Below, one piece after another: positions 16,869 through 35,696 of a DNA stretch of 64,000 nucleotides. The notes under the pieces are model-generated. The model had not been told where the DNA came from, searched no databases, and saw nothing but the letters and a program-made list of their open reading frames with translations. A program made the translations under genes and the position numbers. The DNA is from Candidatus Altiarchaeota archaeon. GTDB taxonomy: Archaea; Altiarchaeota; Altiarchaeia; IMC4; QMZM01. How positions within the stretch are numbered: position 1 is the stretch's first letter; every line of letters starts with the position of its first letter. Where the stretch lies: NCBI GenBank assembly GCA_016931955.1, contig JAFGDV010000002.1, positions 38,545-102,544 of the forward strand, written 5' to 3'.

Positions 16869-17172
16869 CTATATCACCTTTTTCTTTCTTTATTTTGTTT
16901 TTTTAATCTTATATGGGCAGTTTGATAGCTGGGGTGGGTGCGCCCATCAGACCACCCTAAGTTTTATCTTCTAAAGTTATTTCTGCAAACTTATATAAAT
17001 ATGTTTCTATATTTCTACGTCGGCATAGTGATATCTCAACATAATTATCATTTGACTAAACGCTCATGAGCCACATTATAAGTCAAAAGAATGCATATAA
17101 CATCTGAAGATGGCTGTATTAGATCAACAAAAAATAGGTTAAGTATTTACTTATTACTGCCATCTTATGCTA

Positions 17173-17586: not shown

Positions 17587-17587
17587 C

Positions 17588-18262: not shown

Positions 18263-18275
18263 GTTGCTCCCCAGA

Positions 18276-18896: not shown

Positions 18897-18906
18897 CTTC
18901 TTTTAC

Positions 18907-20032: not shown

Positions 20033-21033
20033 AGTATCTCAACGATTTTATCTGCGATACCCAGCAAAGGCAGGATGAAATCCGCATCCCCGTTTCTTAT
20101 AATCATTTTAGGCATTCCAAATATTAAACTTGTTGATTCATCTTGGACTATGATCTTTCCACCATTCTTTTTTACCCACTTCACCCCATTCGCGCCGTCA
20201 TCTCCCATACCAGTTAATATAACCGCTATTACGTTTTTACCGCATACCTTCGAAACGGACTTCAATGTGACGTCTATGCAAGGCTTTACTATAGTATGTT
20301 TTTTGTTTAATTGAGTAAATAAATGTTTCCCTTTTTGCACTACCTCCAGGTTGTAACCCCCAGGAGCCACTAGAACCTTGCCTTTATCAAGTAGGCTGCC
20401 TTCTTTTGCTTCTTCCACCTTTAGTGGGCACACTGCATCCAGCGTCTCAGCGAACGCCTTAGTGAATCCCGCCGGCATGTGTTGTACGACTAGAACGGCA
20501 GCTGGAAAATCCTTTGGGAACGAAGACAGTATAGTTCTAATTGTGGCCACACCACCGCAGGAAGCACCCAATACCAAAACCTTCTCGGATATCTTAGGCG
20601 CAGACAATTTTTTCTTCGGCTTCTTTATCACGAGTTTTTTTATCTCAAGGGATGATGCGACTCGCACCAATGCTATCAGCTCTTCCTTCATTTCCTCCAG
20701 ATCGCTGAGCCGGTTAGGCATCACTATGAAGTCCACTGCCCCATAGCCTAAGGCACTCAGCATCTCCCGCCTTCCCAGATCAGATTCTCGGCCGACCACT
20801 ATCGTTGGAGTAGGATCAAGCAGCATTATGTTGTAGAGGATGTCCAATGCATGTACTCCCTTCATCTCTATGTCTAGTAGAACAACATCCGGCTCAAGGA
20901 GCTCAATCTTGTCTAAAGCCTCCTCAGCTAGACCAGAGCGGTGGATGACCTTTATCTCTGGTTCGGACTCCAGCATACATGTAAGCTTGACCCCAAAAAA
21001 ATAAGAATCCGCTATTATGAGGACCTTGATCAT
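20029..21033 (-). CDS. cheB: Chemotaxis methylesterase CheB with a degenerate receiver domain
   Basis: Esterase triad in GASCGG, VQHMP, LTGMGDDG; N-terminal REC-like domain. Confidence 0.92.
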   Translation of the reverse strand: MIKVLIIADSYFFGVKLTCMLESEPEIKVIHRSGLAEEALDKIELLEPDVVLLDIEMKGVHALDILYNIMLLDPTPTIVVGRESDLGRREMLSALGYGAVDFIVMPNRLSDLEEMKEELIALVRVASSLEIKKLVIKKPKKKLSAPKISEKVLVLGASCGGVATIRTILSSFPKDFPAAVLVVQHMPAGFTKAFAETLDAVCPLKVEEAKEGSLLDKGKVLVAPGGYNLEVVQKGKHLFTQLNKKHTIVKPCIDVTLKSVSKVCGKNVIAVILTGMGDDGANGVKWVKKNGGKIIVQDESTSLIFGMPKMIIRNGDADFILPLLGIADKIVEIL

Positions 21034-21042
21034 TCTCCCATT

Positions 21043-21411
21043 CTATGAGAATCTCCTGACAACATCAAGTATCTGCTCCCTCTTGAATGGTTTGGTTACG
21101 TAGGCCTTTGCACCTATCCTCATCGCTTCTTTCATAGGATCCCCATGGCCTATGGCGGTTACCATGACAATGACCGCTTTTGGATCTATTTTCATGATCT
21201 CGGCTAAGACCTGCAGACCATCCTTCTCTGCCATTATTATGTCCAGTAAGACGATGCCGGGCCTTTCTTTCTTGTAGACCTCAACTGTTTCAGTCCCGTT
21301 CTGGGCTTCAACGATATCGCGATAACCTTCCTCAGAGAGCATCGTCTTAAGCATATTCCTCATGAAGGCAGAATCATCTGCCAACAATACCTTAGGTTTT
21401 GCCATTTTCAT
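21043..21411 (-). CDS. cheY: CheY-like single-domain response regulator
   Basis: LADDSAFMR, LLDIIM, MVTA, VTKPF. Confidence 0.9.
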   Translation of the reverse strand: MKMAKPKVLLADDSAFMRNMLKTMLSEEGYRDIVEAQNGTETVEVYKKERPGIVLLDIIMAEKDGLQVLAEIMKIDPKAVIVMVTAIGHGDPMKEAMRIGAKAYVTKPFKREQILDVVRRFS

Positions 21412-21775
21412 CCAAGAGTTTGTTTATGTTTTTAATCAACTTTGCCTCAGTTATCGGCTTTGATATGTATGAGCACGCCCCTCGTTTGATGCAGTCCTCC
21501 ATGGTCTTCTGATCCCTTATTATGCTCGACACTATAATCTTCACCTCGGGTTTGATCTCCATCAGCCTATCGAGCACATACAACCCGTCATTGCCAGGCA
21601 TCTTCAGATCGAGCAATACGATATCTGGATCCTCTACACCGCACTTTAGTATGCAATCGTTTCCGTTAACGGCCTCGACGACATCACTGTACCCGTTTTT
21701 TTGGAGGATGCTAATCAACGCCCTGCGCTCGAACATGGAGTCATCTGCTACAAGTATCTTGACCATCAGCACCAC
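21392..21775 (-). CDS. cheY: CheY-like single-domain response regulator (FER subtype)
   Basis: VADDSMFER, LLDLKMP, ISKPI. Confidence 0.88.
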   Translation of the reverse strand: MVLMVKILVADDSMFERRALISILQKNGYSDVVEAVNGNDCILKCGVEDPDIVLLDLKMPGNDGLYVLDRLMEIKPEVKIIVSSIIRDQKTMEDCIKRGACSYISKPITEAKLIKNINKLLDENGKT

Positions 21776-21852: not shown

Positions 21853-22215
21853 ATGCACGAGTTCTCGATAGCTGAAGACATCCTGGAGGTCGCACTGGAT
21901 GAGGCGGAAAAGCATAAAGCTTCCAGGATAAAACACATCTCTGTGGAGGTTGGAGGGCTCATGATGGCGAACCTCGAGCAATTGGATTTCGCCCTCAGAT
22001 CCCTGTCAGTTGGAACCCTTGCAGAGGATATGGAAGTCGACCTGAAGACGGTCCCTGGGAGATTCAAGTGCGACAACAACCACGTGAATGAGGTAAGTAT
22101 TGAGGAGGATGACCTCTACCTGGCCCTAGCCTCTCTCAGATGCCCTGAATGCGGCAGCCCTCTAAGGGTGTTGAGCGGAAAAGAGTGCGTGCTGAAGAGG
22201 ATAATCGCCGAATAA
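21853..22215 (+). CDS. hypA: Hydrogenase nickel metallochaperone HypA
   Basis: MHE N-terminus, CPECG knuckle, SGKECVL. Confidence 0.9.
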   Translation: MHEFSIAEDILEVALDEAEKHKASRIKHISVEVGGLMMANLEQLDFALRSLSVGTLAEDMEVDLKTVPGRFKCDNNHVNEVSIEEDDLYLALASLRCPECGSPLRVLSGKECVLKRIIAE

Positions 22216-22222
22216 CGCTAAA

Positions 22223-22873
22223 ATGCATGTGATAGACGTAGACAGGGATATCATGGAGATCAACAGGAGGATATCTGAAAGGAACCAAAGAGTCTTGGAA
22301 GAGAACAATGTCTTTGGATTCGATGTTTTGGGGGCTATCGGCTCTGGCAAGACCTCCCTGATTGAGGCCTTGGTTGGGAGGATCGGGAAAAAACTGGGGA
22401 TCGGAGCGATAGCGGGTGACGTTATTAGTGACGCCGACGCCAGCCGTTTGAAGAGGTGTGGAATCCCAGTCATCGGCTTGAACACTGGAAGGGAGTGCCA
22501 TCTTGACGCCCACCTCGTCGAGCATGCGCTTGAGAGCCTTCCATTAAAGGACCTCGACATTCTGTTCATAGAGAACGTGGGGAACCTCATATGTCCAGTA
22601 GACTTCCCGCTTGGGGCACATCGGAGGATCGTTGTAGTAAGCGTGAGCGAGGGGGACGACACCGTAGAAAAGCACCCCATGATCTTCCTGGACTCTGATC
22701 TTGCGGTGATAAACAAGATAGACATCGCAGAAGCGGTTGATGCGAGCGTTGAGAAGATGGAATACGACGCCAAACGGATCAATCCACGGCTGCCTGTGAT
22801 AAAAACAAGCATGAAGAAGGGTATCGGTCTAAACGAAATAGTCGATTGGATAAGAAAAGAATCCAATCTATAG
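22223..22873 (+). CDS. hypB: Hydrogenase nickel-insertion GTPase HypB
   Basis: GAIGSGKT, ECHLDA, ENVGNLICP, NKID. Confidence 0.95.
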   Translation: MHVIDVDRDIMEINRRISERNQRVLEENNVFGFDVLGAIGSGKTSLIEALVGRIGKKLGIGAIAGDVISDADASRLKRCGIPVIGLNTGRECHLDAHLVEHALESLPLKDLDILFIENVGNLICPVDFPLGAHRRIVVVSVSEGDDTVEKHPMIFLDSDLAVINKIDIAEAVDASVEKMEYDAKRINPRLPVIKTSMKKGIGLNEIVDWIRKESNL

Positions 22874-22888
22874 TTTAATGGTGATATC

Positions 22889-23128
22889 ATGTGTCTGGCT
22901 ATCCCAGGAAGGATCCTGGATATAAAGGACAATGAAGCATCTGTTGACTTCGGCGGCGTGAAAAGGCCTGTTAGGATTGACTTAGTCGACGCCAAGGTGG
23001 GAGACTACGTCATCGTCCATACGGGATACGCAATCGAGGTATTGGATGAAGAGGAAGCTCTTGAAAGCCTGAAACTGTGGAGACAAATCCTCTCCAAAAT
23101 GGACGATGATCCTAAGAGATTTCCGTGA
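22889..23128 (+). CDS. hypC: Hydrogenase maturation protein HypC
   Basis: MCLAIPG N-terminus, GDYVIVHTGYA. Confidence 0.95.
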   Translation: MCLAIPGRILDIKDNEASVDFGGVKRPVRIDLVDAKVGDYVIVHTGYAIEVLDEEEALESLKLWRQILSKMDDDPKRFP

Positions 23129-24176
23129 TAGGGGGCTTGCCTTGAAGGCGTCAAAGGAGATAGGGGATATGGCATCAACCTTGGGCAAGGTAAAGATCAT
23201 GCACGTCTGCGGAACCCACGAAGACACAATAACCCGTTTTGGGATAAGGTCTCTTCTCCCAGAGAATGTGGAGGTGATATCCGGTCCTGGATGCCCTGTC
23301 TGCGTTACGACGAACAGGGAGATAGATGAAGCCATATCGCTCGCACAAAAAGGCATTACTGTGACGACGTTCGGTGACATGCTCCGGGTCCCTGGAAGCC
23401 GCTCCTCGCTGGCGGACTCGAAGGCTGATGGAAATGATGTGAGGATCGTCTACTCCGTAACTGACGCAGTAGAGATCGCCCATAAGAATCCGGAGAAAGA
23501 GGTTGCTCACATCGCCATAGGCTTCGAGACAACGATACCATCCAACGCGGTCGCCCTCCAAGACGCTCCTGAGAATTTCTCGATCCTATGCTGTCACCGG
23601 CTTATCCCTCCAGCGATGGAGTTGCTCTTGGAGTCTCACGAGGTGAGGATAGACGGCTTCATAGATCCTGGGCATGTTTCAGCCATAATAGGAGTAAAAC
23701 CCTATAGACCTCTGGCGGAAAAATACAGGATACCTCACGTAATCGTCGGCTTCGAGCCCCTTGACGTTCTCTTCTCCATCATAATGCTGCTGGAGATGAT
23801 AAAAAACCATGAATGTGAGGTAAGGAATGAGTACAGCCGCGTCGTCAAGGAGGAAGGCAATCAGAAGGCCTTAAGTATCATGGACGCTGTCTTCGAACCC
23901 TGCGACGTGGATTGGAGGGGCTTTCCTGTGATCCCAAGATCCGGGCTCATGTTGAGGGAACGATTCGCTGAACACGACGCAAGAGAGAGGTTCGAGCTTA
24001 GGGTAGAACCGACAGAGGATCTTCGGGGATGCAGGTGCTCTGATGTCTTGAAGGGGTTGATATATCCCAGAGAGTGCCCGCTCTTCGGTAAGGCGTGCAC
24101 TCCCAAGAAGCCTGTCGGTCCCTGCATGGTCTCTGCTGAGGGCGCATGCTCTATAATGTACAGACACACTAGCTAG
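23106..24176 (+). CDS. hypD: Hydrogenase maturation protein HypD
   Basis: HVCGTHE, GPGCPVC, GFETT, C-terminal Cys cluster with PVGPCMVSAEGAC. Confidence 0.95.
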   Translation: MILRDFRDRGLALKASKEIGDMASTLGKVKIMHVCGTHEDTITRFGIRSLLPENVEVISGPGCPVCVTTNREIDEAISLAQKGITVTTFGDMLRVPGSRSSLADSKADGNDVRIVYSVTDAVEIAHKNPEKEVAHIAIGFETTIPSNAVALQDAPENFSILCCHRLIPPAMELLLESHEVRIDGFIDPGHVSAIIGVKPYRPLAEKYRIPHVIVGFEPLDVLFSIIMLLEMIKNHECEVRNEYSRVVKEEGNQKALSIMDAVFEPCDVDWRGFPVIPRSGLMLRERFAEHDARERFELRVEPTEDLRGCRCSDVLKGLIYPRECPLFGKACTPKKPVGPCMVSAEGACSIMYRHTS

Positions 24177-24177
24177 G

Positions 24178-25176
24178 ATGGAAAGGATAAAACTCTTACA
24201 CGGTGGCGGGGGGGAAGCCATGCAGGAATTGATCTCTGACGTGATTAAGAACCTCTCCCTCACAAAGGTTGAGGGTGGGATCGGCTTGGATGCCTTGGAC
24301 GATTCAGCAACCATACCCTTTGGAGACAAGCACCTTGTCTTCACCACGGATGCGTACACTGTAAAGCCGTTGTTCTTCCATGGGGGGGACATAGGCAGGC
24401 TCTCTGTTTCAGGGACCATAAACGACCTCGCTGTTATGGGCGCTAAACCAATCGCTCTCGCCTCTTCTTTCGTTATCGGTGAAGGCCTCCCATTTGAAGA
24501 CTTGCGGAAGATAACGAAGTCCATGAACCAGGTCTGCAAGGAGGTCCCAGTACCTATTATTACAGGAGACACCAAGGTCATGGAAGACCTTGATATGATC
24601 ATAACAACGTCTGGCATAGGTTTAACAGAAAAACCGATACTGGACTCCGGGATGCGGCCAGGTGACAGGATAATAGTGAACGGCACCCTCGGCGATCACG
24701 GTATGGCGATCATGGCTCAGAGGGAGGGCATATCTTTCGAGACCGAACTGAGGTCTGACTGCGCACAGTTGTGGGGTCTTATAAAAAAGATCCTTAGATA
24801 CGAGATACATGCCATGAAGGATCCTACGAGAGGCGGCCTAGCGAACGCCTTAAATGAGATGGCTGAGAAATCAAAATCAGGGGTTTTGTTGTATGAGGAC
24901 CAGATACCCATGAAAGATGAAGTACTTGCGGCGTCTGAGATGCTTGGCATAGATCCCCTGTCTGTGGCAAACGAAGGGAAAGCCATTATTGTCACAAGCG
25001 AAAATGATACTGAGAAAATCCTAGAAACGATGAAGAAGACCCGCTTGGGTCGGGATGCCTCCATAATAGGTGAGGTGACCGAAAAAGATAAGGGACGGGT
25101 GATAATGGAGACCCGCATAGGTGGCAGAAAGATCCTCAGCAAGCCTGCCGGCGACCCTGTCCCAAGGGTCTGTTAG
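24178..25176 (+). CDS. hypE: Hydrogenase maturation protein HypE
   Basis: HGGGG, FTTDAYTV, DPTRGG, C-terminal PRVC. Confidence 0.95.
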   Translation: MERIKLLHGGGGEAMQELISDVIKNLSLTKVEGGIGLDALDDSATIPFGDKHLVFTTDAYTVKPLFFHGGDIGRLSVSGTINDLAVMGAKPIALASSFVIGEGLPFEDLRKITKSMNQVCKEVPVPIITGDTKVMEDLDMIITTSGIGLTEKPILDSGMRPGDRIIVNGTLGDHGMAIMAQREGISFETELRSDCAQLWGLIKKILRYEIHAMKDPTRGGLANALNEMAEKSKSGVLLYEDQIPMKDEVLAASEMLGIDPLSVANEGKAIIVTSENDTEKILETMKKTRLGRDASIIGEVTEKDKGRVIMETRIGGRKILSKPAGDPVPRVC

Positions 25177-25177
25177 G

Positions 25178-25639
25178 ATGAAAACCCTGATACTGGGCAT
25201 TGGGAATCCTATACTGACCGATGACGGCGTTGGTGTTTTGATTGCTGAACGCCTACGTGATGTTGTCTCAGACCCGGAAATCGATGTCCGTGAGGAATCA
25301 ACGTCTGGTCTTGACATCATAAGCCTTGTTAGGGGTTATGATAGGCTCATCCTCGTGGACGCTATAAAGACGGGTAAAGCCAGGGTTGGGGAGATACTCC
25401 GGCTCTCGCCTCAGGATATTACCAAGGAGCCTGCACTTCATTTCTCGACCCTTCATGACGCGGATTTGATGACATCCCTGAATCTTGGTAGTGAACTTGG
25501 GATAGATATCCCTAGCGAAATAGTGATATACGCTGTTGAGGTCGAAAACGTGGAGGAATTTGGCGAGAAGTGCACACCTGAAGTGGAAAAAGCCATACCC
25601 AAGGCAGTGGAATTAATAAAGGAGGAATTGGGTCTATAA
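25178..25639 (+). CDS. Hydrogenase maturation endopeptidase (HyaD/HycI family)
   Basis: GIGNPILTDDGVG, LVDA, STLHD; start reassigned to ATG 25178. Confidence 0.9.
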   Translation: MKTLILGIGNPILTDDGVGVLIAERLRDVVSDPEIDVREESTSGLDIISLVRGYDRLILVDAIKTGKARVGEILRLSPQDITKEPALHFSTLHDADLMTSLNLGSELGIDIPSEIVIYAVEVENVEEFGEKCTPEVEKAIPKAVELIKEELGL

Positions 25640-27010
25640 CCTCGGGAGGCTGGGGCTGTATGCCCTACATGCCATTTCTATCTTGTTGAGGTCTCTTCTT
25701 TTTGTGTTATTATTCCTGATCAATCCATCTGCCACCTGTTTTACAGAGACGCATATAGCCGCATTGTTGTGGTTGCTGCCCGTTATTATGTCCGCCTTCT
25801 CTACGATGCCTTTCTCGTCTGTCACATAGTGGTGGATGAGTGTCCCTGAGGGTGATTCTATAACGCCCACACCCTCCCCTTGCGTGTTTTCTGGAACATT
25901 CATCAGATTGTTGTCAGTAATCTCCGGATCCTGTATCAGCTCCAAAGCAAGCTCGGCTGAATAAAGCATTTCTATGAGGTCGGCCCAATGAAACGCCAAG
26001 GTGTGATGGCAGGGTTTCGGCAGTGTGTCAAGCATCCTCTCATATGCTTCCTGTGCCTGAGGTGTTTTCAATCCGTAGGCAACGTTTAATCTGGCCAGTG
26101 ACCCGACCCGGTAAAGCCAAGAACGATCAGCGTCAGATAGCCCCTTCCAGCCAACCTTCCTCAGATGTGAGAAACCCAGATTAGACCATGATTCCTCGTG
26201 TTCTTCCACGTGCTGGGGGTAGTCTTCTCCCCTGAACCTTAAGATCTCCCTTCCGTGGGCGTCCACGACTTTTAGATCGCCATCATAGAGTTCAAGGCGT
26301 TCTTTTTCGTCCACTGTACCCATGTAGTTCGTCTTTATATGGTAGAGCCCCTCATCGAACAGTAGATCCACGTATGCACGATTCTTTAACACGATTTCTT
26401 CGAACAGATTTAATGTAAACGCTGCGAATTCTGTAAATGACTTTACTTTGCCCTCTACCCAATCCCTCTCCTCTCCAGTGATACCCCGAGAGACGCCTCC
26501 GGGAAGCCCGCTTACTGGATGAACTGCCCTTCCCCCCAAGACCTGGAGTATCCTCTGTGCACGAAGAAGGTTTTCTGCCGCGTCCTTTGAGGTTTCCCTC
26601 CCGAGCCTCGCCGTTATTGCAGTGAGATTCCTTTCGCGAGCTGCTGAATCAGGGTTGATGAATAGGTCTGGAGCATTCAGGTAATAAAAATTTAGTAGTT
26701 TATTCCCAAAATGGGAGATATGGTATGTTAGTCTCCTTAGCTTGTCTGCTGTGGGTGTTGGCTCTGTTTTCCACAGAGCATCAAGTGCCTTCACAGACGC
26801 TATATGATGGGCCCAGCTGCATAGCCCGCTCATCCTTGAAATGATCCTCGGCATCTCCTCAGACGGCTGTCCGCGACATAATTCCTCAAAACCCTTCATA
26901 CCCTTCGCTTGAAAGTACGCACTCACTCCCATCTCCCTATCTGAAAATATAGTTATCCTAGCGTGGCCGTTTATTCTCGTTACCGGGTCTATTATTATCT
27001 TTTTCCTCAA
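25634..27010 (-). CDS. MvhA-like [NiFe]-hydrogenase large-subunit homologue lacking Ni ligands (pseudo-enzyme, intact ORF)
   Basis: End-to-end similarity to the large subunit at 45312; L1 is RMSGLC, L2 is RAYSPSLPRL-stop, RINGH replaces RxEGH, ESPSG replaces EAPRG. Confidence 0.88.
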   Translation of the reverse strand: MRKKIIIDPVTRINGHARITIFSDREMGVSAYFQAKGMKGFEELCRGQPSEEMPRIISRMSGLCSWAHHIASVKALDALWKTEPTPTADKLRRLTYHISHFGNKLLNFYYLNAPDLFINPDSAARERNLTAITARLGRETSKDAAENLLRAQRILQVLGGRAVHPVSGLPGGVSRGITGEERDWVEGKVKSFTEFAAFTLNLFEEIVLKNRAYVDLLFDEGLYHIKTNYMGTVDEKERLELYDGDLKVVDAHGREILRFRGEDYPQHVEEHEESWSNLGFSHLRKVGWKGLSDADRSWLYRVGSLARLNVAYGLKTPQAQEAYERMLDTLPKPCHHTLAFHWADLIEMLYSAELALELIQDPEITDNNLMNVPENTQGEGVGVIESPSGTLIHHYVTDEKGIVEKADIITGSNHNNAAICVSVKQVADGLIRNNNTKRRDLNKIEMACRAYSPSLPRL

Positions 27011-27987
27011 TTTCTAGATGCCCTCCTTTGTTTCTTTAGGATGCTCGACGACAGGCTGAAGCGGTAGACTGTTCCACCAAGGGAGGGTATGCTCTCAACC
27101 GTCTTTCTTATGGTGGTCTTCTCTCCACCGCACATAATGGAAGCTAACGTCGATATGTAGGCTCCACCCATGTCGAGGATTCCCTCAGCTGGTCCAAGGC
27201 ATCCCCTACAAGGCATATTGGCTGAAACACACTGGCTTCCGCACCCGGCTCTTGTTACAGGACCCATGCACAGCAGCCCCTGGTCAAGCAAGCAGACCTT
27301 ATCGTCGAAAACCTTTTCATAGGGTCTGTGGAATACCTTGACGCTTTTCCCCTTCCTCGCTCTCTCACATTCGTCGCAGAGTGTCCTCCCAGAAGCGAAC
27401 ACTGAGCCTTTAGGAGGTAGTTTGTTCTCCAGCATGCTGACGAATAGCTTCAGGATCATTGAAGGTGTTGGGGGACAACCTGGGATGAGATAGTCCACAT
27501 CAATGACACCGCTTAATGGACTGATGAAGTCGCATGGCTCCGGAAGTGGAAGTATGCCCTCAGCAAGCTTTACCCTCTTCCTTGATTTTTCCTTCCCCTT
27601 GCCCTGTAGACCCAGCATGCCAGGTATTCCGCCCATGCAGGCGCATGATCCAACCGCTGTGATTATCTTGGATTTTTTTCTTAGAATCTGGGCCATGTCC
27701 ATCTGCCCCCTGTTCATCACAGCACCGTTGAAGAGACAGAGGTCGATTGTTTTGTCATACATCCTCTTTACCCGAGAGTATCTGAAATCCGCTATTAGAG
27801 GCCATAAAACGACGTCAATGTTTTCAGTTATATCCAAGAATCTCTCGCCCAATCCTATGAAGGAGAGATCACAACCACCACATCCTCCTGCCATGTACAG
27901 TGCAACCTTCGGTTTTCTTCCTGGACTAATCTTCCTTACAGCTTCCGCTACCTGCGACCAGTCTTCTCTGAATGCCTTAAGCTTCAT
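27007..27987 (-). CDS. mvhG: MvhG-like hydrogenase small (Fe-S) subunit
   Basis: GCGGC, GSCACMGGIPG, PGCPP, CDEC, CLLDQGLLCMGPVTRAGC-CRGC. Confidence 0.88.
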   Translation of the reverse strand: MKLKAFREDWSQVAEAVRKISPGRKPKVALYMAGGCGGCDLSFIGLGERFLDITENIDVVLWPLIADFRYSRVKRMYDKTIDLCLFNGAVMNRGQMDMAQILRKKSKIITAVGSCACMGGIPGMLGLQGKGKEKSRKRVKLAEGILPLPEPCDFISPLSGVIDVDYLIPGCPPTPSMILKLFVSMLENKLPPKGSVFASGRTLCDECERARKGKSVKVFHRPYEKVFDDKVCLLDQGLLCMGPVTRAGCGSQCVSANMPCRGCLGPAEGILDMGGAYISTLASIMCGGEKTTIRKTVESIPSLGGTVYRFSLSSSILKKQRRASRN

Positions 27988-28366
27988 TCTCCCACCTTAG
28001 GGGTCCCAGGGATTTAAGCTTTGACGTCATCTCCTTGACAAGTTTCATGAACCCAAAGCTCTCAGACTCCTTAAGGCATTCGAAGCGTAGCCTTTCCCTG
28101 CTTATCCTCAGATCAGAGAGCAACCTTTGGAGGAGAACAAACCTCTTGAATGCTTCCCCGTCTTCCTCCGCTGAGTGGCATTCCCCCGGAGGGCTGCACA
28201 GCATCAGGATTCCGTCTGCGCCTTTTTTGAGTTCTGAGAGCAGAAGCTTTGGGTTAAGGTGATTAACACATCCCTCCCTTACCAGGGGGATTTCCTCAAG
28301 GCCGACGTTTTTAGGCAGACAGGATTTACAGGCAAAGACAATGATCTTGGGCTCATATTCTTCCAT
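27977..28366 (-). CDS. Divergent MvhD/FlpD-like Fe-S protein
   Basis: EPKIIVFACKSC, GADGILMLC-GECH, ERLRFE-KLKSLGP match the MvhD layout. Confidence 0.75.
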   Translation of the reverse strand: MEEYEPKIIVFACKSCLPKNVGLEEIPLVREGCVNHLNPKLLLSELKKGADGILMLCSPPGECHSAEEDGEAFKRFVLLQRLLSDLRISRERLRFECLKESESFGFMKLVKEMTSKLKSLGPLRWENEA

Positions 28367-29216
28367 TTATGATCTTCTCCGTTATTCCCTCATACGCGCT
28401 CTTCACCTTCCCATCCGACCTATAATGGGAGAGTGGCAAGCCTCTTTTCTGCGCTTCGTAGACCTTTTTGGAGTATGGTACTATGAAAAGGTCTCCTCTG
28501 AACCCAACGCCTACCGACAAATGCAGCCGTAGTTTGTCTTCAAGCTCACTGAGGGGGTCTTCAAGAGACAGAAACCCTGATAGTTTCGGTACCCTATCCC
28601 TCAGCATCTTGTGTATTGGACGCACCGTGGGTTCCTGGAACCTTGTAACAATCACAGTGTTGATCCCCTTCTTCACGCCCTCCCTTTCTTCTATATTCTT
28701 CAGTATCTCAGCAAAGGTTTCGATGCTGTCTATGGAGAAGAAACCGCTGTCCAAGGGTAGTATGATAGAGTCTGCTGCAACGATTGCATTGGTCAGTAGT
28801 GGCGTGTAGCTGGGGGGCGTATCTATCAGTATGTAATCATAGAGTTCTCTGACATCGTCTAGGGCTCGATCAAGTATCTGGGAGGAACCCTTAGCCTTCT
28901 GCATGTGACCAAGGATGTTCGCCAGATTCAGTTCTGACGGAGCCAGATGAAGATCCTCTATCTCTGTTGCAAGTATCACATTCCTGAACCTTAACTTCCT
29001 TTTTCTCCCGCATCCCTCAAGAAGCACATCATATACCGAGAACGGCAGGTATCTTTTGTTTATATTCAAACCAGCGGTTGCGTTTGCTTGGGGGTCCATG
29101 TCGACGACAAGGACCTTCTTGCCTCTTTTCACCAGTTCCCCCGCAATGTTTATGCATGAGGTCGTCTTGCCCGTGCCGCCCTTATGGTGGGCGAATGCTA
29201 TGCATTTAGCCCGCAT
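28353..29216 (-). CDS. Orphan ParA/Soj/MinD family ATPase
   Basis: Deviant Walker A KGGTGKTT, DMDPQAN, IDTPPS; start reassigned to ATG 29216. Confidence 0.9.
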   Translation of the reverse strand: MRAKCIAFAHHKGGTGKTTSCINIAGELVKRGKKVLVVDMDPQANATAGLNINKRYLPFSVYDVLLEGCGRKRKLRFRNVILATEIEDLHLAPSELNLANILGHMQKAKGSSQILDRALDDVRELYDYILIDTPPSYTPLLTNAIVAADSIILPLDSGFFSIDSIETFAEILKNIEEREGVKKGINTVIVTRFQEPTVRPIHKMLRDRVPKLSGFLSLEDPLSELEDKLRLHLSVGVGFRGDLFIVPYSKKVYEAQKRGLPLSHYRSDGKVKSAYEGITEKIINGRI

Positions 29217-29321
29217 CCTAATCAACAATATCGCAGAAAGTTCAGCCAGATGGATTACAAGAGACGCACGCTTGAGCCTCTTTAAGCATATATTAAGTAG
29301 AACTATTATAAATACGTGTAA

Positions 29322-29951
29322 CTATTCCCCGACCTTCTTGTCAAGTTTTTCTATGATCAGCTTCAGTGATTTTGAGTCTGGGAGGAATATCAATCTCCCC
29401 TTTATCGTGGTCTCCTTCGCCGTGAACTCCGTCGCCAGAATGAGTGCCTTCTTTATCTCCCATGTGAAGCCCTTCCTTATGTCGGTGACAGACCTCTCCG
29501 TCATTGTGAAAGAAACCAGTGGAACATGATGGCACGGCCGCACATCCAAAAAATCGCTGAGTGCTGTAAGATATGATCCAAAGAGTATGTTGGATAACTC
29601 ACTCAGAGCATCCCGCGATATCTGATCCAACACACTGGTTTCTTTTCTTACCAGGATATTGCTGATTATTATGTCAGCCAATTTCGTCGCATCTTCTCTC
29701 TCAAAGACCATCACTATCAGGGCATTGATGTCGCCTGTTATGAGGGAGGAGATTTCGACGAGCAAATCCCTCGGAGGTGCAAGGGTTGAGGGTACTTCGT
29801 CGATGCCGACCAGTTTCACCCATGGAACCCTCAACATTATCTCGCAGTCTAGCATCTCTGAGAGGGCGACGCTTGAGCTCCCGGCGCCGATAGTCCCTAC
29901 CTCTCTAAGAGCATCCAGCTGCAGCTTCGTCATACCTATGTCTTCCGTCAT
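29322..29951 (-). CDS. cheC: CheC-like protein, only the second motif intact
   Basis: DALREVGTIG, DALSELSNIL; ATG 29951 fits the upstream TATA spacing. Confidence 0.82.
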   Translation of the reverse strand: MTEDIGMTKLQLDALREVGTIGAGSSSVALSEMLDCEIMLRVPWVKLVGIDEVPSTLAPPRDLLVEISSLITGDINALIVMVFEREDATKLADIIISNILVRKETSVLDQISRDALSELSNILFGSYLTALSDFLDVRPCHHVPLVSFTMTERSVTDIRKGFTWEIKKALILATEFTAKETTIKGRLIFLPDSKSLKLIIEKLDKKVGE

Positions 29952-30000
29952 CCTCTTATAGATTTTACTCAATCATGTATAAAAACATGTGAACGGCAGA

Positions 30001-30013
30001 AAGTATTTATAAG
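30001..30013 (+). promoter_or_regulatory. BRE/TATA promoter of the cheY-cheY-cheA-cheC-cheD operon
   Basis: AAGTATTTATAAG; GGGTGA ribosome-binding site before ATG 30054. Confidence 0.55.
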
Positions 30014-30053
30014 AGAAATACAAATACAATTATCAAATTATCGGGTGATCTGA

Positions 30054-30419
30054 ATGCCTAAGATTTTGACCATAGAAGACTCTACTTTTGAGAGGAAGGC
30101 CATACGCGATATGCTGGCTAGGGCAGGGTACACCAGCGTAGTGGAGGCTGAGAGCGGCGAGATCGGCTTAGAGAGGTACAAGAAGGAAAAACCTGACCTT
30201 GTTTTATTGGATCTCCGGATGCCAGGTATGCCTGGGATGGAAGTCTTAGAGGAGTTGAAGAAGATCAATCCAAGAGTCAGGGTGATAATAGTCAGCATAG
30301 TGAGGAAGAAGGAGACCGTCGACGAAGCGTTGAAGCTGGGCGTCGAAGCCTATGTTTCAAAACCGATCACTACCGAGAAACTAATACCTGAAGTTAAAAA
30401 AGCATTAGGAGGGAATTAA
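30054..30419 (+). CDS. cheY: CheY-like response regulator (FER subtype)
   Basis: IEDSTFER, LLDLRMP, VSKPI. Confidence 0.88.
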   Translation: MPKILTIEDSTFERKAIRDMLARAGYTSVVEAESGEIGLERYKKEKPDLVLLDLRMPGMPGMEVLEELKKINPRVRVIIVSIVRKKETVDEALKLGVEAYVSKPITTEKLIPEVKKALGGN

Positions 30420-30779
30420 ATGACCAAAATACTATTAGCGGATGATTCTGCCTTTATGAGGAAGATACTGACTAACATATTAACCAAGAAGGGATACACT
30501 GACCTCATCGAAGCTGTGGATGGAGAAGAGACTGTGGCAGCCTATACCAGAGAAAAACCGGACCTTGTTCTCTTGGATATAGTAATGAAGAAGAAATACG
30601 GAACCGAGGCGTTGAAGGACATAATGCAGATGGATCCAAACGCCAAGATAATAATGGTATCGGCAGTAGGGCAGGAGAAGGTTATCGAGGAGGCAATTCA
30701 ATTAGGCGCCAAGGGTTTTGTTGTTAAACCCTTCAAGGAAGAGGAAGTCTTAAGCAAGGTTAAGGAAGTCCTTGGCTAA
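30420..30779 (+). CDS. cheY: CheY-like response regulator
   Basis: LADDSAFMR, LLDIVM, VVKPF. Confidence 0.92.
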   Translation: MTKILLADDSAFMRKILTNILTKKGYTDLIEAVDGEETVAAYTREKPDLVLLDIVMKKKYGTEALKDIMQMDPNAKIIMVSAVGQEKVIEEAIQLGAKGFVVKPFKEEEVLSKVKEVLG

Positions 30780-30797
30780 TTCTCTGAATGCTCGGAA

Positions 30798-32387
30798 ATG
30801 GCAGATGACATGAGTGAATATAAGGAGCTCTACCTGAAGGAGGCGGAGGAATTACTGCAAAGCCTGAATTCTTCACTACTTGAGTTCGAGAAGAACCCGA
30901 CAAGGGAGGACCTTATAAAGGAGATGGCACGTTGTGCCCATACACTCAAGAGTAATTCTTCTTCAATGGGTTTCGAGAAACTGGCGGAATTATCTCACTC
31001 CATGGAGGACGGGTTGTTGATGCTCCAGGAGTCCGGCATTGAAGCCAGCGATGAGATCATCGACCTCCTCTTTGAATGCTTCGACTACCTGGAGGTCTCA
31101 GTGGACAAGGTAAGCACTGGTGAGGAGGAACCAGACAACACAGATCTTTTGAAGAAACTGGAGGTGCTGAAATCCACTGACATAAAGAAGAGGAGTAAGG
31201 AGGAGTCTGGTGTGAAACTCGCCGAACGGCCTCAGACCATCAGGAGGCTTCGCTCAATCAAGGTGGACATCAAGATCCTAGATAAATTGGTGGACTTGGT
31301 TGGAGAACTACTGACCGCAACCATGAGGTTCCAGAACCTGAACTCAACGTACAAGATCAAGGAATTCGACAAGATAATAAACCAGCTGAATATGCTAACG
31401 GAGGATATCCAATACGAGGTCACTGAAGCAAGAATGATCCCTGTTGGCCAGGTATTCAACCGGTTTCCGAGGATGGTGCGAGACCTGGCGAAGAGGGAGA
31501 ACAAGAAGGTGGACTTCACCATTGAGGGAAGCGACATACAACTGGATAGAACTGTGTTGGATCAGATCGGTGAGCCACTGATCCATCTGCTGAGGAATTC
31601 CATAGACCACGGCATCGAATCTCCGGAGGAGAGGATTAAGGCAGGCAAACCCGAGACAGGCAAAATCCATTTGAGAGCCAGTAGAGAGAAAAACGCCGTA
31701 ATCATTGAGGTCATTGACGATGGCGCAGGCTTCGATGAAGACAAGATAAAGGAGATAGCAATAAAAAAGGGCGTGATAACGGAGGAGGAGGCTAAGACCA
31801 TACCCAAAAAGCAGTTACTGGATATCCCATTTCTGCCCACTTTCAGCACATCCGATAAGGTCACCAAGGTCTCCGGCAGAGGGGTTGGATTGGATGTTGT
31901 CAAGACAAAGATTGATGAACTAAATGGGTCGCTGAAGATGGAGACCGAAAAGAGCAAGGGGACGAGATTCATCCTAGGTCTGCCGCACACTCTAGCAATC
32001 ATCAAGTGCCTCCTAACGTACGTCGGCGAGGAACGCTATGCTTTGCCCATCATTGATATCTCAAGGATCGTCAACATCGAAGAATCTAGGATGCAACACA
32101 TCGAAGGCAATGAAGTCTTCATTCTCGATGGCGAAGACATACCCCTGATAAGGCTGCGCGACGTATTTAATCTGCCCCGCAAGAAAGACAGAAAACTGAC
32201 GGTAATAATTACTGAGAGAACCCAGGAGAAGAACGGTATTGCTGTGGATGGGATCATCGGTGAACAGGAGCTTATGATAAAGTCGGTGACTAAAACGCTG
32301 AAGAAGATCAAGGGAATAGCAGGTGCTACCATCCTTGGCGATGGTCAACCCGCCATGGTCTTGGATATTAATGGCCTGCTTGCTTAG
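30798..32387 (+). CDS. cheA: Chemotaxis histidine kinase CheA (no P2 domain)
   Basis: HPT AHTLKS, HLLRNSIDHGIE, DDGAG, SGRGVGLDVV, C-terminal CheW-like P5. Confidence 0.95.
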   Translation: MADDMSEYKELYLKEAEELLQSLNSSLLEFEKNPTREDLIKEMARCAHTLKSNSSSMGFEKLAELSHSMEDGLLMLQESGIEASDEIIDLLFECFDYLEVSVDKVSTGEEEPDNTDLLKKLEVLKSTDIKKRSKEESGVKLAERPQTIRRLRSIKVDIKILDKLVDLVGELLTATMRFQNLNSTYKIKEFDKIINQLNMLTEDIQYEVTEARMIPVGQVFNRFPRMVRDLAKRENKKVDFTIEGSDIQLDRTVLDQIGEPLIHLLRNSIDHGIESPEERIKAGKPETGKIHLRASREKNAVIIEVIDDGAGFDEDKIKEIAIKKGVITEEEAKTIPKKQLLDIPFLPTFSTSDKVTKVSGRGVGLDVVKTKIDELNGSLKMETEKSKGTRFILGLPHTLAIIKCLLTYVGEERYALPIIDISRIVNIEESRMQHIEGNEVFILDGEDIPLIRLRDVFNLPRKKDRKLTVIITERTQEKNGIAVDGIIGEQELMIKSVTKTLKKIKGIAGATILGDGQPAMVLDINGLLA

Positions 32388-32403
32388 ATACCACAGTACC
32401 AAA

Positions 32404-33081
32404 ATGACTGAACTATCAAAATTCGAGATCGACGCGATAGCTGAGATAATAAACATCGGTGCAGGGCATGCATCCAACGCACTATCCGTGATGACTCGCA
32501 AGGACATACACATGAGCTTCCCTGAGGTGAAACTATGTCCGATAGAAAAGATACCCCAGCTCCTTGGCAATCCCGAGGACCTGGTTGCCGCAGTTTATCT
32601 CAAGATCGAGGGCAAGAGTAACAACAAACTCATCCCCGTTGGAAGCCTGATCTTTATGTTACAGCATGATAGCGCAGAGGAGCTTGCGGCGCTTTTAGAG
32701 AACAGGAAACCGCCTAAAGAGAAGAGTTTCGAACTCGGTGAGATGGATGTATCCGCATTAGAGGAGACTGGAAACATCCTCAGCGGTGCTTCATTAACAG
32801 CGATAAGCAAGGTCCTTGACATGCAATTGGTCGAGTCACTGCCACATTTCGCACACGACATGCTTCAAGCAGTATTGAGTTTCTGTTTGATCGAGCTGGC
32901 CCCAAAGGCGACGGATGCGTTGACATTTACGACCGCATTCGAGGTCGAAGGCCACGAAATAGACGCCTACTTCCTCCTTTTATTAGACCCAGAGAGCTTA
33001 GAGCTCCTCAGTAAGAGACTGAGGACACTATTTGAGGATATGCTAGCGGAATACATAGAAGAGGAGTACTCAGATGCGTGA
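32404..33081 (+). CDS. cheC: CheC phosphatase, both motifs intact
   Basis: DAIAEIINIG and SALEETGNIL; start reassigned to ATG 32404. Confidence 0.88.
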   Translation: MTELSKFEIDAIAEIINIGAGHASNALSVMTRKDIHMSFPEVKLCPIEKIPQLLGNPEDLVAAVYLKIEGKSNNKLIPVGSLIFMLQHDSAEELAALLENRKPPKEKSFELGEMDVSALEETGNILSGASLTAISKVLDMQLVESLPHFAHDMLQAVLSFCLIELAPKATDALTFTTAFEVEGHEIDAYFLLLLDPESLELLSKRLRTLFEDMLAEYIEEEYSDA

Positions 33082-33553
33082 GAAACAAGCATATTTGAAC
33101 ATAGGGGAGGGCAGGGTAGTTAATGAACCGACGATTCTCGAAGCAGTTGGCATAGGCTCATGCATCGTAATCTGCCTTTATGATAAAGAAAAAAGGGTGG
33201 CTGGCATGGTCCATGCCCTATTAGGCAACAATCCGCATGACGAAAAAGCGGATCTGAATCCCATGAGGTTCGCCGATACTGCTATAGATCTCCTATTAGG
33301 GGAGATGGCCGAAAAGGGCTGCCAAAAGGGGAACATAGTCGCGAAGATCTTCGGCGGGGCTAAACTCTTTACCTTGGAACACATCAACGTGGGCGAAGAT
33401 AACATATTTGCTGTAAGACAGAAACTCGAAGAGGTTGGAATACCAATAGTAGCTGAAGACACCGGTGGAAAACACGGCAGGAATATCTGGTTCGACACAG
33501 AAAACGGGAAAGTAGTTGTTGGGAGGGTCTTCGGACCCACGTTGGAGTATTAG
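33074..33553 (+). CDS. cheD: CheD deamidase
   Basis: GIGSCIVI, MVHALL, KIFGGA, EDTGGKHGRNI. Confidence 0.9.
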   Translation: MREKQAYLNIGEGRVVNEPTILEAVGIGSCIVICLYDKEKRVAGMVHALLGNNPHDEKADLNPMRFADTAIDLLLGEMAEKGCQKGNIVAKIFGGAKLFTLEHINVGEDNIFAVRQKLEEVGIPIVAEDTGGKHGRNIWFDTENGKVVVGRVFGPTLEY

Positions 33554-34371
33554 CTAACCTTCCTGAATATCCTCTCAGAGAGGCTGACCAGATTGAATTT
33601 CTTATGCATTGCCTCATGCATTGTCTCTGTTTTCCCTATTACGAGATAACCCTCCTTGGCCAGTGAGTCATAGAATGCCTCAAAGATTTCCTTCTGCGTA
33701 TCCCTTGAGAAGTAGATGAAAACGTTCCTGCAGAATATCACGTCCACATAGTGCTGAGGCTTTCCGTTTATCAGGTCGCTTTTTTCGAATTTCACCATGG
33801 ACTTTATGCTGTCCCTTAACCTGTAATAGTCGCAGACCTTGTCGAAGTATTTTTCCAGTAACTCAACACCAACATTCTTGAGAAGGTCTTTTTCGTATAA
33901 GCCTCTCACAGCATCCCCCAGGCACTTTTCATCGATATCTGTCGCCTTTATAGCTACTACAAAGTTCTTCATATCATCCCCAAGTAGCTCTTGGAGGATG
34001 ATTGCTATGCTGTAGGGTTCTTCGCCGGCTGCGCATCCGGCAGACCATATGCTTATAACCTTCTTTCCCTCCCTCTTCTTCCTATCAATCAGTTCGGGAA
34101 AGATCTCTTCCCTCAATAGATCAAACATCTCCTTGTCCCTGAAAAACTCGGTGAAATTGATCGTTAACACATCCACTAGCTTGTCGTATTCCCTCTTGTT
34201 GTTTATGAGTAACCTTATGTATTCCCCATATGACTGAACATTATTGACCTTCATCCGGACGTTGATCCTCCTCTTCAGGGTCGTGTCTTTGTAGTTTTTA
34301 CAGTTGAAGCCCCTCTCCCTTTGTATCATGTCCTTGAGCAACTCGAAATCGTCTCTCGTCTCCATCTTCAA
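33550..34371 (-). CDS. cheR: Chemotaxis methyltransferase CheR
   Basis: TINFTEFFRD, WSAGCAAGEEPYS, ATDID, IFCRNVFIYF. Confidence 0.95.
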   Translation of the reverse strand: MKMETRDDFELLKDMIQRERGFNCKNYKDTTLKRRINVRMKVNNVQSYGEYIRLLINNKREYDKLVDVLTINFTEFFRDKEMFDLLREEIFPELIDRKKREGKKVISIWSAGCAAGEEPYSIAIILQELLGDDMKNFVVAIKATDIDEKCLGDAVRGLYEKDLLKNVGVELLEKYFDKVCDYYRLRDSIKSMVKFEKSDLINGKPQHYVDVIFCRNVFIYFSRDTQKEIFEAFYDSLAKEGYLVIGKTETMHEAMHKKFNLVSLSERIFRKVS

Positions 34372-34474
34372 GTAATAAATTTGGCATTCAGGTATTTATC
34401 CGTTGAATCGCTGGGGGTAAAAGATATATACTAGTTAATCCAATTAATCTAACAAATAGTTTACAGGTGATAAC

Positions 34475-35083
34475 ATGTACGACTTGAATGACTTTCAGAA
34501 GGATGCCTTGAAGGAGCTGGGCAGTCTGGGGTCTGGAAAGGCTTCAGCAGCGCTTTCAACTTTAGTGGATACGGAGGTAAGACTTGACGTACCCTTCGTC
34601 GACTTGGTGCCTACTAAGAATGTACCGAACCTCGTCGGAGGACCGAGGAAGCTGGTCATTGGGACATATTCGACAGTTATCGGCGACGTATCTGGAACGA
34701 TAGTTGTGGTCTTCCCGATTAAGAGCGCTAGACTGCTCGTCGACATACTGAATAAAGAGCCATCAGGTACGTGCGAGGTACTGAAACTCAAGGACAGAGA
34801 CAACATAAGGAAGATTGGGGAAATCCTGTCCTCGGCCTATCTTGAAACACTCGCTGAGTTTCTGGACATACACGCAACCCACGAAGACCCGAGGATTGTT
34901 TCGGCGTTCGGTGAATCGCTCCCGGACTTTGTGCTTTTGAATATTACGGGAGAATATGCTCTACTCCTGAAGACCGTATTCAAGATTCCGTCGACGGAGG
35001 AGCTTGAAGGTAACTTCGTGCTGCTGTTGACTGCTGAATCGATAGAGAAGCTCCTGGAAACAATAAAGAGCAAACTCTCCTAA
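34475..35083 (+). CDS. cheC: CheC-like protein, both motifs degenerate
   Basis: DALKELGSLG; DNIRKIGEIL. Confidence 0.8.
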   Translation: MYDLNDFQKDALKELGSLGSGKASAALSTLVDTEVRLDVPFVDLVPTKNVPNLVGGPRKLVIGTYSTVIGDVSGTIVVVFPIKSARLLVDILNKEPSGTCEVLKLKDRDNIRKIGEILSSAYLETLAEFLDIHATHEDPRIVSAFGESLPDFVLLNITGEYALLLKTVFKIPSTEELEGNFVLLLTAESIEKLLETIKSKLS

Positions 35084-35084
35084 A

Positions 35085-35687
35085 ATGCCTCTTGACCTCA
35101 AAAAAGAGATTGGAAACAACAAGATTCTGGTCTTAGTCATACCCAATGACACATACACAGAGTGTGTTATAGAATTATCAAAGCAGGTTGGAGGCATTTA
35201 TGGAAAGACCTGCTACGTCAGCCTGAACAAGCTGTTCACGGCCCTCCTGAACAGCCTCAAGAATAATGGAGTGAACACCGAGGGTTTCTTCTTCATCGAC
35301 GCTATAACGAAGTCCGCCCTTCCGGGGGTAGAGAACACATTCAACTGCAATTATATATCCTCCGCTTCCTCACTACAGGAGCTGGCGATAGCGATAAATA
35401 ACGAATTAAACAAGGAGGACTATGAAGCCTTGATCTTCGACTCCCTGTCCACGCTTCAGATATACAATAGAGAGGACGTTATCACGGAATTCATAAAGTA
35501 CATGATGGCCAGGGTCAGGTTGTCTAACTGCGTCGCTATCCTAACCTGCCTTGAAGGCGACACTGATTCCCAGCTTATAAGAAACCTTGCCATGTTCAGC
35601 GACAAGATAATACACATCGAAGCCCACATAATCATGGAAGACACGGAGACGACGGTAACCTTCGAAGCCAGGGGCTCAACAATCTAA
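35085..35687 (+). CDS. RecA/KaiC-fold protein lacking Walker A (DUF835-like), paralogue 1
   Basis: CYVSLNK, FFFIDAIT, LIFDSLSTL (Walker B-like), FSDKII; no GxxxxGKT. Confidence 0.6.
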   Translation: MPLDLKKEIGNNKILVLVIPNDTYTECVIELSKQVGGIYGKTCYVSLNKLFTALLNSLKNNGVNTEGFFFIDAITKSALPGVENTFNCNYISSASSLQELAIAINNELNKEDYEALIFDSLSTLQIYNREDVITEFIKYMMARVRLSNCVAILTCLEGDTDSQLIRNLAMFSDKIIHIEAHIIMEDTETTVTFEARGSTI

Positions 35688-35696
35688 GGAGCAGGG

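Follow-up and report, generated by a model that had tools for sequence, protein, structure and literature searches.

A nickel-less Mvh-type trio predicted beside a chemotaxis-cluster parA in Candidatus Altiarchaeota

Background

What might hydrogenase-like genes be doing in a chemotaxis cluster? The question is raised by a stretch of 64,000 nt from the genome of a Candidatus Altiarchaeota archaeon (contig JAFGDV010000002.1; we call the whole stretch the window), where cheC, parA and genes resembling mvhD, mvhG and mvhA form a string on the minus strand, with open reading frames (ORFs) spanning 25634-29972. The divergent hydrogenase-like trio is marked here with an asterisk (mvhD*, mvhG*, mvhA*). 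The original prediction, made from the sequence alone, regarded all five genes as one unit lying between two chemotaxis operons, and proposed that a catalytically dead hydrogenase with a surviving Fe-S chain supplies a redox input to a Che-like pathway. Its gene calls and family names for the five genes are confirmed by ORF coordinates, Pfam and NCBIfam (Table 1). The explanation that we favour, tentatively, is a different one. The trio would encode a nickel-free, Mvh-derived Fe-S pseudo-hydrogenase that serves as an electron relay or redox carrier and is co-expressed with the ParA of a chemotaxis cluster.

Loss of the Ni-Fe site

Only one other carrier of the trio was found. It is a 13.4-kb Logan contig (L079), collinear with window positions 25967-39217 at 77.6% nucleotide identity and with the same cheC-parA-mvhD*-mvhG*-mvhA* order and overlaps. 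It ends inside mvhA* at codon 349, the C-terminus of that orthologue lying beyond the contig end.

When MvhA* is aligned with its 119 best homologues, 39 of the 145 near-invariant columns (those at least 95% conserved) are altered in it; the other homologues have a median of one such change and a maximum of 12. The first Cys of the RxCGxCxxxH motif is Ser in MvhA* alone (C61S), both Cys being present in 119/119 homologues. The L1 motif ICGxCxxxH, which with its Ni-Fe cysteines is part of the definition of the [NiFe]-hydrogenase large subunit (PMC6085437), is replaced by RMSGLCSWAH in the window and RMCGLGSWAH in L079. The C-terminal DPCxxCxxH is gone, again from MvhA* alone in the alignment, and the protein ends in AYSPSLPRL before the stop with no Cys or His there. 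Three of the four Ni-Fe cysteines are missing from MvhA*. Second-shell catalytic residues have been lost as well, by E14N in both carriers and R388S in the window. In Hyd-1 numbering E28 is the proton-relay Glu beside a Ni-bound Cys, and changing the pendant Arg (R509K) slows the rate 100-fold (PMC8020662); this Arg is strictly conserved (PMC10430524). Judged by these residues, the catalytic large subunit is dead.

The fold appears to have survived. In an AlphaFold model of MvhA* the pLDDT averages 89.7 and the pTM is 0.92; only the two degenerate active-site motifs, at residues 13-15 and 456-458, fall below a confidence of 50. The solved structure closest to the model is 5odc_F, the MvhA of the Hdr-Mvh complex (TM 0.92, root-mean-square deviation 2.0 Å), which the sequence itself matches at 4.1e-79. 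As modelled, MvhA* is an intact MvhA fold; among hydrogenase models it scores only against those of group 3 and group 1/2.

Could such a protein still activate H2, either at an unconventional metal site or as a split large subunit of the VhuA/VhuU kind? Its best NCBIfam match, VhuA, is a family with a split C-terminus, and a maturation protease and hyp genes are adjacent. However, the damage extends to the N-terminal CxxC, which is broken differently in the two orthologues (S..C in the window, C..G in L079), and a search across the window for a VhuU-like split C-terminal peptide (DP[C/U]xxCxxH) found none, the sole DPCxxCxxH belonging to another hydrogenase. We consider H2 activation of either kind extremely improbable, and an active but unconventional hydrogenase was rejected: both Ni-Fe ligand motifs are broken, and MvhA* has neither proton-relay Glu nor pendant Arg.

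The adjacent genes, a hyp-hycI maturation operon that the original prediction left unremarked, need not tell in favour of such activity. This operon converges on mvhA*, with 3' ends overlapping by 6 nt, and it need not imply maturation of MvhA*, because the same genome holds two canonical [NiFe] hydrogenases that require hyp-hycI. These two were likewise unremarked. One, at 44335-46748 (+), is in a plus-strand cluster (43046-46748) made of its own hycI (43046-43516), a 182-aa protein without family match, the small subunit and the large subunit, the last with intact RICGVC, PRG and DPCLSCAAH motifs. Two Cache-only proteins are encoded upstream of this cluster (40327-42829). The other is a canonical locus with hypF and an hdrA/mvhD fusion-mvhG-mvhA-hdrC-hdrB, at L001:4575-14142, 5.7-17 kb upstream of the window start; L001 belongs to the same genome, its positions 17163-21482 being window 1-4320 at 100%. 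Mvh-type large subunits are thus encoded three times in this genome, and one of the three is dead. Nor need hyp-hycI be a sign of MvhA* maturation, since it is also kept in relatives without the trio: genes of this operon adjoin parA in L080-L082 (hyp-hycI) and L083 (hyp only), where mvh genes are absent.

The partner subunits tell another story. MvhG* keeps 13/13 conserved Cys columns in both carriers, and with the proximal, medial and distal ligands present it is predicted to hold [4Fe-4S] clusters at all three positions. The pairing of a dead catalytic subunit with a Cys-complete Fe-S small subunit, as originally proposed, therefore stands (39/145 columns on the one side, 13/13 Cys on the other). 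MvhG* also has two features seen in none of 118 homologues: a basic N-terminal extension of 16 residues and, behind the GGIP motif, the loss of about 18 residues. The extension has REDWSxVAEA in common between the two carriers and starts with MKLKAF in the window and MRDSTL in L079. MvhD* is without a conserved 9-residue loop in both orthologues, which differ in their Cys pattern. The window protein has five Cys, one shifted by a residue; that of L079 is without the second Cys of CxxC and has one extra Cys. MvhD* possibly still binds a [2Fe-2S] cluster.

Selection, history and rarity

Are these genes simply decaying? Our statements on selection and ancestry come from one pairwise comparison, window against L079, with synonymous sites near saturation (pS, the synonymous difference, 0.55-0.72). 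The ratio of nonsynonymous to synonymous difference (pN/pS) is 0.26 for MvhA* (bootstrap 0.21-0.32), 0.32 for MvhG* (0.26-0.38) and 0.39 for MvhD* (0.29-0.52). For ParA and its neighbours (CheA, CheC, CheR, CheD and a glycogen-debranching enzyme) it is 0.08-0.22, with ParA alone at 0.20. All three reading frames of the trio are open in both genomes. With pN/pS of 0.26-0.39, the trio is, by this measure, clearly under purifying selection, so that these would be selected genes and not pseudogenes.

In the part of MvhA* that the two orthologues share, 16 of 105 near-invariant columns are altered in both, and at 12 of these the new residue is identical; E14N, R48Q, P65S and H104K are among the columns changed in both. 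Because of these shared changes, the simplest reading is that catalysis had already been lost in the common ancestor of the two carriers; the cysteines would then have drifted independently while the rest stayed constrained. By these comparisons MvhA* behaves as a pseudo-enzyme and not as a pseudogene.

It might be argued instead that the trio is a relic, that is, an ordinary mvhDGA beside maturation genes that became redundant with two other hydrogenases, was deleted in sister lineages and is now eroding without function. The degenerate active site and the loss of different Cys in each orthologue would fit this, as would a rate of evolution two to three times that of the neighbours (pN 0.19-0.24 against 0.05-0.14). 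Sister lineages are without the trio yet have hyp-hycI at the same spot, and the start codon of mvhA* is TTG in the window (27008-27010, minus strand, within a TTGA where it overlaps the stop codon of mvhG) and ATG in L079 (12246-12248). Against erosion, three frames have stayed intact in both genomes despite a pS of 0.62-0.72, pN/pS is at most 0.52 even at the upper bootstrap bound, the Fe-S cysteines of MvhG* and the gene overlaps are preserved, and the MvhA* model is of high confidence. We regard a functionless relic as quite unlikely.

The trio appears to be very rare and confined to two closely related genomes. In a collection of 5.8 billion proteins MvhA* has as its closest non-self match a canonical enzyme with 50% identity, and MvhG* has one orthologue at 65%, all its other matches being at or below 50%. 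GTDB species representatives gave only canonical MvhA relatives, at no more than 51% identity. Both Ni-Fe motifs are present in 62 of these 76 relatives, and the remaining 14 comprise truncated and frameshifted sequences and minor variants; a clean Cys-less copy of MvhA was not among the 76. A scan of metagenome contigs, for which the query was a two-sequence MvhA* alignment with only two N-terminal patterns, gained no family members and returned only an unrelated canonical group-1-like hydrogenase (L089). A neighbour-joining tree did not place the MvhA* clade: it branches on a long stem (0.31) at the base of the canonical set and does not group with P0065, the canonical MvhA of the same genome. 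Our literature search found no description of a Cys-less MvhA, and nothing relevant on chemotaxis together with hydrogenase in Altiarchaeota.

parA and the chemotaxis cluster

If the trio is under selection, to what is it coupled? The 4-14 nt overlaps on which the original prediction relied are real: from the coordinates, parA and mvhD* overlap by 14 nt, mvhD* and mvhG* by 11 nt, and mvhG* and mvhA* by 4 nt, and the string is kept in the second genome. The start assigned to cheC, ATG 29948, agrees with its 208-aa orthologue in L079, and the gene is indeed divergent from the chemotaxis genes originally named, which run as cheY-cheY-cheA-cheC-cheD.

Between cheC and parA there is a TATA-box-like element, TATTTATAAT, a third feature that the original prediction did not mention. 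It is invariant in five lineages, with ParA identity down to 57%, and elsewhere in the spacer there is no conservation. This element is likely the archaeal promoter of parA-mvhD*-mvhG*-mvhA*, and these four genes are likely the transcription unit. A scan for sigma-70 promoters and terminators, which is not meaningful for an archaeon, gave values at or below shuffle expectation. Because the conserved element lies between them, cheC is left out of the likely unit and is probably a conserved neighbour with separate transcription. The unit first proposed, running from cheC to mvhA*, holds from parA onwards, with cheC probably apart. Its placement between two chemotaxis operons is right in that a second che operon exists; the hyp-hycI operon separates that operon from mvhA*.

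The ParA itself is of the Soj type, with Soj (6iub) as its best solved relative (1.3e-32), and its motifs HHKGGTGKTT, VVDMDPQ and LIDTPPS (deviant Walker A, A' and Walker B) are invariant in eight relatives. Eight of the ten contexts of ParA relatives that we examined are within che clusters, the two outside being L086 and L090, and the cheC-parA pair is kept in L079-L085 and L087. By its contexts this ParA belongs with che genes and not with mvh.

The gene that follows parA differs among lineages. It is the trio in the window and in L079. In L080-L083 nothing follows until the convergent hycI-hyp genes (hyp only in L083), and then MCP-cheW-cheY-cheB. In L084 and L085 tusA and a dsrE-like gene come first, followed by a gene for a 536-aa MCP and cheW; L087 has the same start until its contig end. 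In L088 the gene for a protein of 67 aa comes first and those for a HAMP protein and an MCP follow; L091 has a gene for a 498-aa protein. The first receptor-block gene after parA opens in six lineages with a basic peptide, K-x-G-R-[KR]-[AK]-[FL]-[FY] (e.g. MAKDRKLGRKAFF), beyond which the N-terminus is not conserved. The peptide resembles those of ParA partners. The gene with this peptide is a confirmed MCP in L080, L083 and L084, and encodes the HAMP protein before the MCP in L088. The original call of a chemotaxis-type ParA is thus upheld. Partners of ParA/MinD proteins typically have positively charged N-termini, and cargo genes usually adjoin the ATPase gene (PMC10241942). For these reasons an array-positioning system like PpfA/TlpT is the best reading of parA that the comparison of contexts offers.

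The slot with tusA and the dsrE-like gene (L084:8040-10313, L085:10889-11788, L087:7486-8205) is an observation in its own right. The 536-aa MCP of L084 is without a recognised sensor domain, and tusA, the dsrE-like gene and the MCP may form a sulfur-linked receptor module.

Another suggestion would be that "ParA" is a maturation or Fe-S/Ni-insertion NTPase, of the CooC or Mrp kind, for hydrogenase-like proteins. The gene adjoins those of Fe-S proteins and the hyp operon, and there are weak Pfam matches to Fer4_NifH and to the NUBPL-type ParA family. The best matches, however, are to AAA_31 and Soj, scores against Mrp/ApbC and nitrogenase-reductase-like models are weak and well below curated cut-offs, and ParA relatives keep the company of che genes even where mvh and hyp are both absent. 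We give this suggestion hardly any credence; a role for ParA as a hydrogenase maturation NTPase was rejected, as the protein is Soj-like and tracks che genes.

The C-terminus of ParA (window 28353-28375, minus strand) may say something about the history of the locus. The window and L079 have ...KIINGRI there, L084 and L087 ...DGISI; in L080 (10835-10855) and L083, where parA abuts hycI or hypE, the protein stops a few residues earlier (...KIME, ...EIMK). As the shorter form is found there, the arrangement without mvh genes may perhaps be derived.

Is the trio tied to chemotaxis?

A survey of mvhA neighbourhoods gave a negative answer: homologues of parA, cheC and cheA are within 10 kb of 0/78 mvhA loci. 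Both mvhD and mvhG are present at 70 of these loci, a hycI-like protease at 48 and hyp genes at 7-9. Pfam and NCBIfam found no signalling domain (MCP, CheW, PAS, HAMP or receiver) in MvhD*, MvhG* or MvhA*. All other relatives examined in which cheC-parA and the che operons are kept are without the trio. The linkage therefore comes close to being unique to this genome, a finding that the original prediction itself would have counted against the idea, being seen in two closely related genomes only. A redox input to the Che pathway is not borne out; a sensor for chemotaxis is possible but unsupported.

The course of events that we tentatively favour is as follows. The parA gene would be the lineage's chemotaxis-cluster ParA with its own conserved promoter, and its usual partners would be cluster receptors, which in relatives have the basic N-terminal peptide. 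The trio would descend from a group-3c (Mvh-type) hydrogenase, its H2 chemistry having been lost before the two carriers diverged and purifying selection having kept it since. MvhA* would now be only a scaffold holding MvhG*, with three intact [4Fe-4S] clusters, and MvhD*. If electrons enter and leave via MvhD* and the distal cluster, the complex would be an electron relay or redox-state carrier and not an H2 enzyme. Its position beside parA would be largely a legacy of the adjoining hyp-hycI maturation operon. Cluster occupancy, complex formation, co-transcription, the relay role and this history are what we infer from the genes.

Several observations weigh against this explanation. The canonical HdrA of the genome already has its own fused MvhD domain, and a partner for the electron relay has not been identified. 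The trio is known from two genomes only and one orthologue is incomplete, which leaves selection and ancestry dependent on that single pair. The 14-nt overlap of parA and mvhD*, together with a single conserved promoter, argues that the trio is really co-expressed with ParA. Relatives have receptors or receptor-adjacent genes downstream of parA, the cluster in the window has neither the peptide-bearing receptor nor its cheW, and MvhG* has gained a basic N-terminal extension. These last three points fit a role linked to ParA or Che better than a purely historical placement.

They lead to an alternative, a broader form of the original prediction, in which the complex probes redox state in the cytoplasm and is tied to chemotaxis, either as a cargo or partner of ParA at the array or as an Fe-S input to Che. 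The trio lies in the predicted unit of parA, behind its conserved promoter and with the same 14/11/4-nt overlaps in both carriers. Elsewhere the basic-peptide receptor occupies this position, sometimes after tusA-dsrE or a small protein, and the MvhG* extension, unique to the trio and conserved between its carriers (REDWSxVAEA), recalls the charged N-termini and adjacent genes typical of ParA/MinD partners (PMC10241942). Loss of catalysis with the Fe-S chain kept would also suit a sensor. On the other side stand the absence of a signalling domain from all three proteins, the 0/78 linkage, and the restriction of the trio to two related genomes, close relatives running their che-parA cluster without it. 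The receptor peptide motif is absent from MvhG*. When the motif was sought in the window and L079, the only match was internal to a histidine kinase. The MKLKAF start of the window MvhG* recalls GRKAFF of the receptor peptide; the likeness is absent in L079, and we take it as a lead only. Finally, a basic-peptide receptor could lie in an unsampled part of the genome. In the flanks beyond the window no MCP was seen, one 931-aa protein there being cut by the contig end and unannotated.

All things considered, we think it rather unlikely, if well worth keeping in mind, that the trio is wired into ParA or Che function, and a redox probe tied to chemotaxis is doubtful to about the same degree. More specifically, ParA might handle the Mvh probe through the basic N-terminus of MvhG*, the probe having replaced the peptide-bearing soluble chemoreceptor and serving energy or redox taxis; this we consider unlikely.

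Comparison with known systems

The nearest known system is MvhAGD (group 3c, in HdrABC-MvhAGD, PDB 5ODC), which has the same three subunit families in the same D-G-A order. The trio differs in being without the L1/L2 Ni-Fe motifs, the proton-relay Glu and the pendant Arg. No hdr genes flank it, the hdrA/mvhD-mvhG-mvhA-hdrC-hdrB set of the genome being a separate canonical locus. It differs further in the N-terminal extension and loop deletion of MvhG*, the loop deletion of MvhD* and the predicted co-transcription with parA.

There are other examples of hydrogenase modules that have lost their metal site. NuoD/NuoB of complex I, MbxL, FuoD and Ehr-type proteins are membrane-bound, ancient and related to group 4. 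Like MvhA*, they have the large-subunit fold without the cysteine pairs and a small subunit that keeps Fe-S, and in them the module is reused for electron transfer, which is the role proposed for the trio. In contrast to them, the trio is soluble, derived from group 3c, keeps all three small-subunit clusters (as predicted) as well as MvhD, and is found in two genomes only. It is exactly by those cysteine pairs that [NiFe] paralogues are set apart from hydrogenases (PMC6085437). HylA of the Hyl formate dehydrogenase complex is a hydrogenase homologue without catalytic motifs that keeps its Fe-S Cys and is presumed to act in electron transfer (PMC6085437). It is catalytically empty like MvhA*, but it belongs to the [FeFe] superfamily, unrelated to [NiFe], and its partner enzymes are known.

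Regulatory hydrogenases, HoxBC and HupUV of group 2b, are hydrogenase-family heterodimers used for signalling with the HoxJ kinase; their Ni-Fe site is functional and they sense H2 directly. They are a precedent for reading the trio as a sensor. The trio differs in having a destroyed site, in its family (3c) and in being without an attached kinase or signalling domain. It does not fall within group 2b, since the Ni-Fe ligands are lost, the closest families are of group 3 and the unit has no kinase gene.

ParA-type ATPases in che clusters, like the one in the window, are represented by PpfA/TlpT of Rhodobacter, ParC/ParP of Vibrio and MinD4 of Haloferax (PMC10241942, PMC5706961, bioRxiv 10.1101/2020.04.03.021790). 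The ParA described here is archaeal, Soj-like and not MinD-like, and known from genes alone, and the next gene is mvhD* and not a receptor.

Features of the region

The features of the locus and the corresponding sites in relatives are collected in Table 1.

Table 1. Coordinates and assignments of features in the window and in related loci
Feature	Position	Strand	Assignment or match
cheC (CheY-P phosphatase family)	ORF 29322-29972, likely start ATG 29948	-	Pfam CheC PF04509 5.8e-15; NCBIfam CheC 8e-34
TATA-box-like element TATTTATAAT	29305-29314	-	directly 3' of cheC stop, upstream of parA
parA, Soj/ParA-type deviant-Walker-A ATPase	ORF 28353-29228, likely start ATG 29219	-	Pfam AAA_31 1.9e-47
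mvhD*, divergent MvhD/FlpD-type	27977-28366	-	Pfam FlpD 1.8e-19; solved MvhD 5odc_D 2.5e-16
mvhG*, hydrogenase small subunit	27007-27987	-	NCBIfam VhuG 1.6e-57
mvhA*, group-3c-type [NiFe] large-subunit homologue without Ni-Fe site	25634-27010	-	NCBIfam VhuA 6.6e-89
hypA-hypB-hypC-hypD-hypE-hycI maturation operon	21853-25639	+	Pfam HypA, cobW/HypB, HypC, HypD, AIRS/HypE, HycI
Second che operon	13238-21775	-	two receivers, cheB, cheC, cheD, two more cheC, HTH, Cache-MCP, cheW, CheC-like
ParA contexts in che clusters (ParA identity)			window, L079 (80%), L080-L082 (67%), L083 (60%)
More ParA contexts in che clusters (ParA identity)			L084/L085 (57%), L087 (61%), L088 (40%), L091 (38%)
Basic peptide, L080	14822-14870
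Basic peptide, L083	14334-14385
Basic peptide, L084	8703-8745
Basic peptide, L087	8122-8165
Basic peptide, L088	9202-9250
Basic peptide, L091	6870-6920

Several other genes in and near the window may be mentioned. The second che operon includes a gene of the ArsR/MarR helix-turn-helix type (17173-17667, minus strand) between a cheC and the Cache-MCP. At 34475-36299 (+) a CheC-like protein of 202 aa is followed by two tandem 200-aa DUF7504/KaiC-like proteins. A pair of 201/202-aa and 200-aa proteins is found beside cheR in L079-L085; of these contigs L079 alone shares the second 200-aa copy with the window. At 48403-56894 (+) there is a tandem array of five paralogous HisKA/HATPase histidine kinases (527-554 aa), the first of which is followed by a receiver gene. 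Beside feoAB, at 60255-63967 (minus strand; L092), are genes resembling those of formylmethanofuran dehydrogenase (amidohydrolase, GXGXG, molybdopterin), and a nikR-like gene is found just past the window end.

Conclusion

The most useful by-product of this analysis is the evidence for a ParA-receptor positioning system in archaea. The conserved ParA and the N-terminal peptide of receptors in Altiarchaeales suggest, from the comparison of gene contexts, that array positioning of the PpfA/TlpT kind exists in archaea. If the link between the trio and ParA or chemotaxis is true, archaeal taxis would gain a sensory input of a new kind. Taxis towards H2 has been reported (PMC3817446); we know of no sensor identified behind behaviours such as this.

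If upheld, a soluble nickel-less Mvh-type trio with a complete Fe-S chain and under selection would be a second, independent repurposing of a hydrogenase. It would also be recent enough to show intermediate steps of such a conversion, with the proton relay going first and then different cysteines in each lineage.

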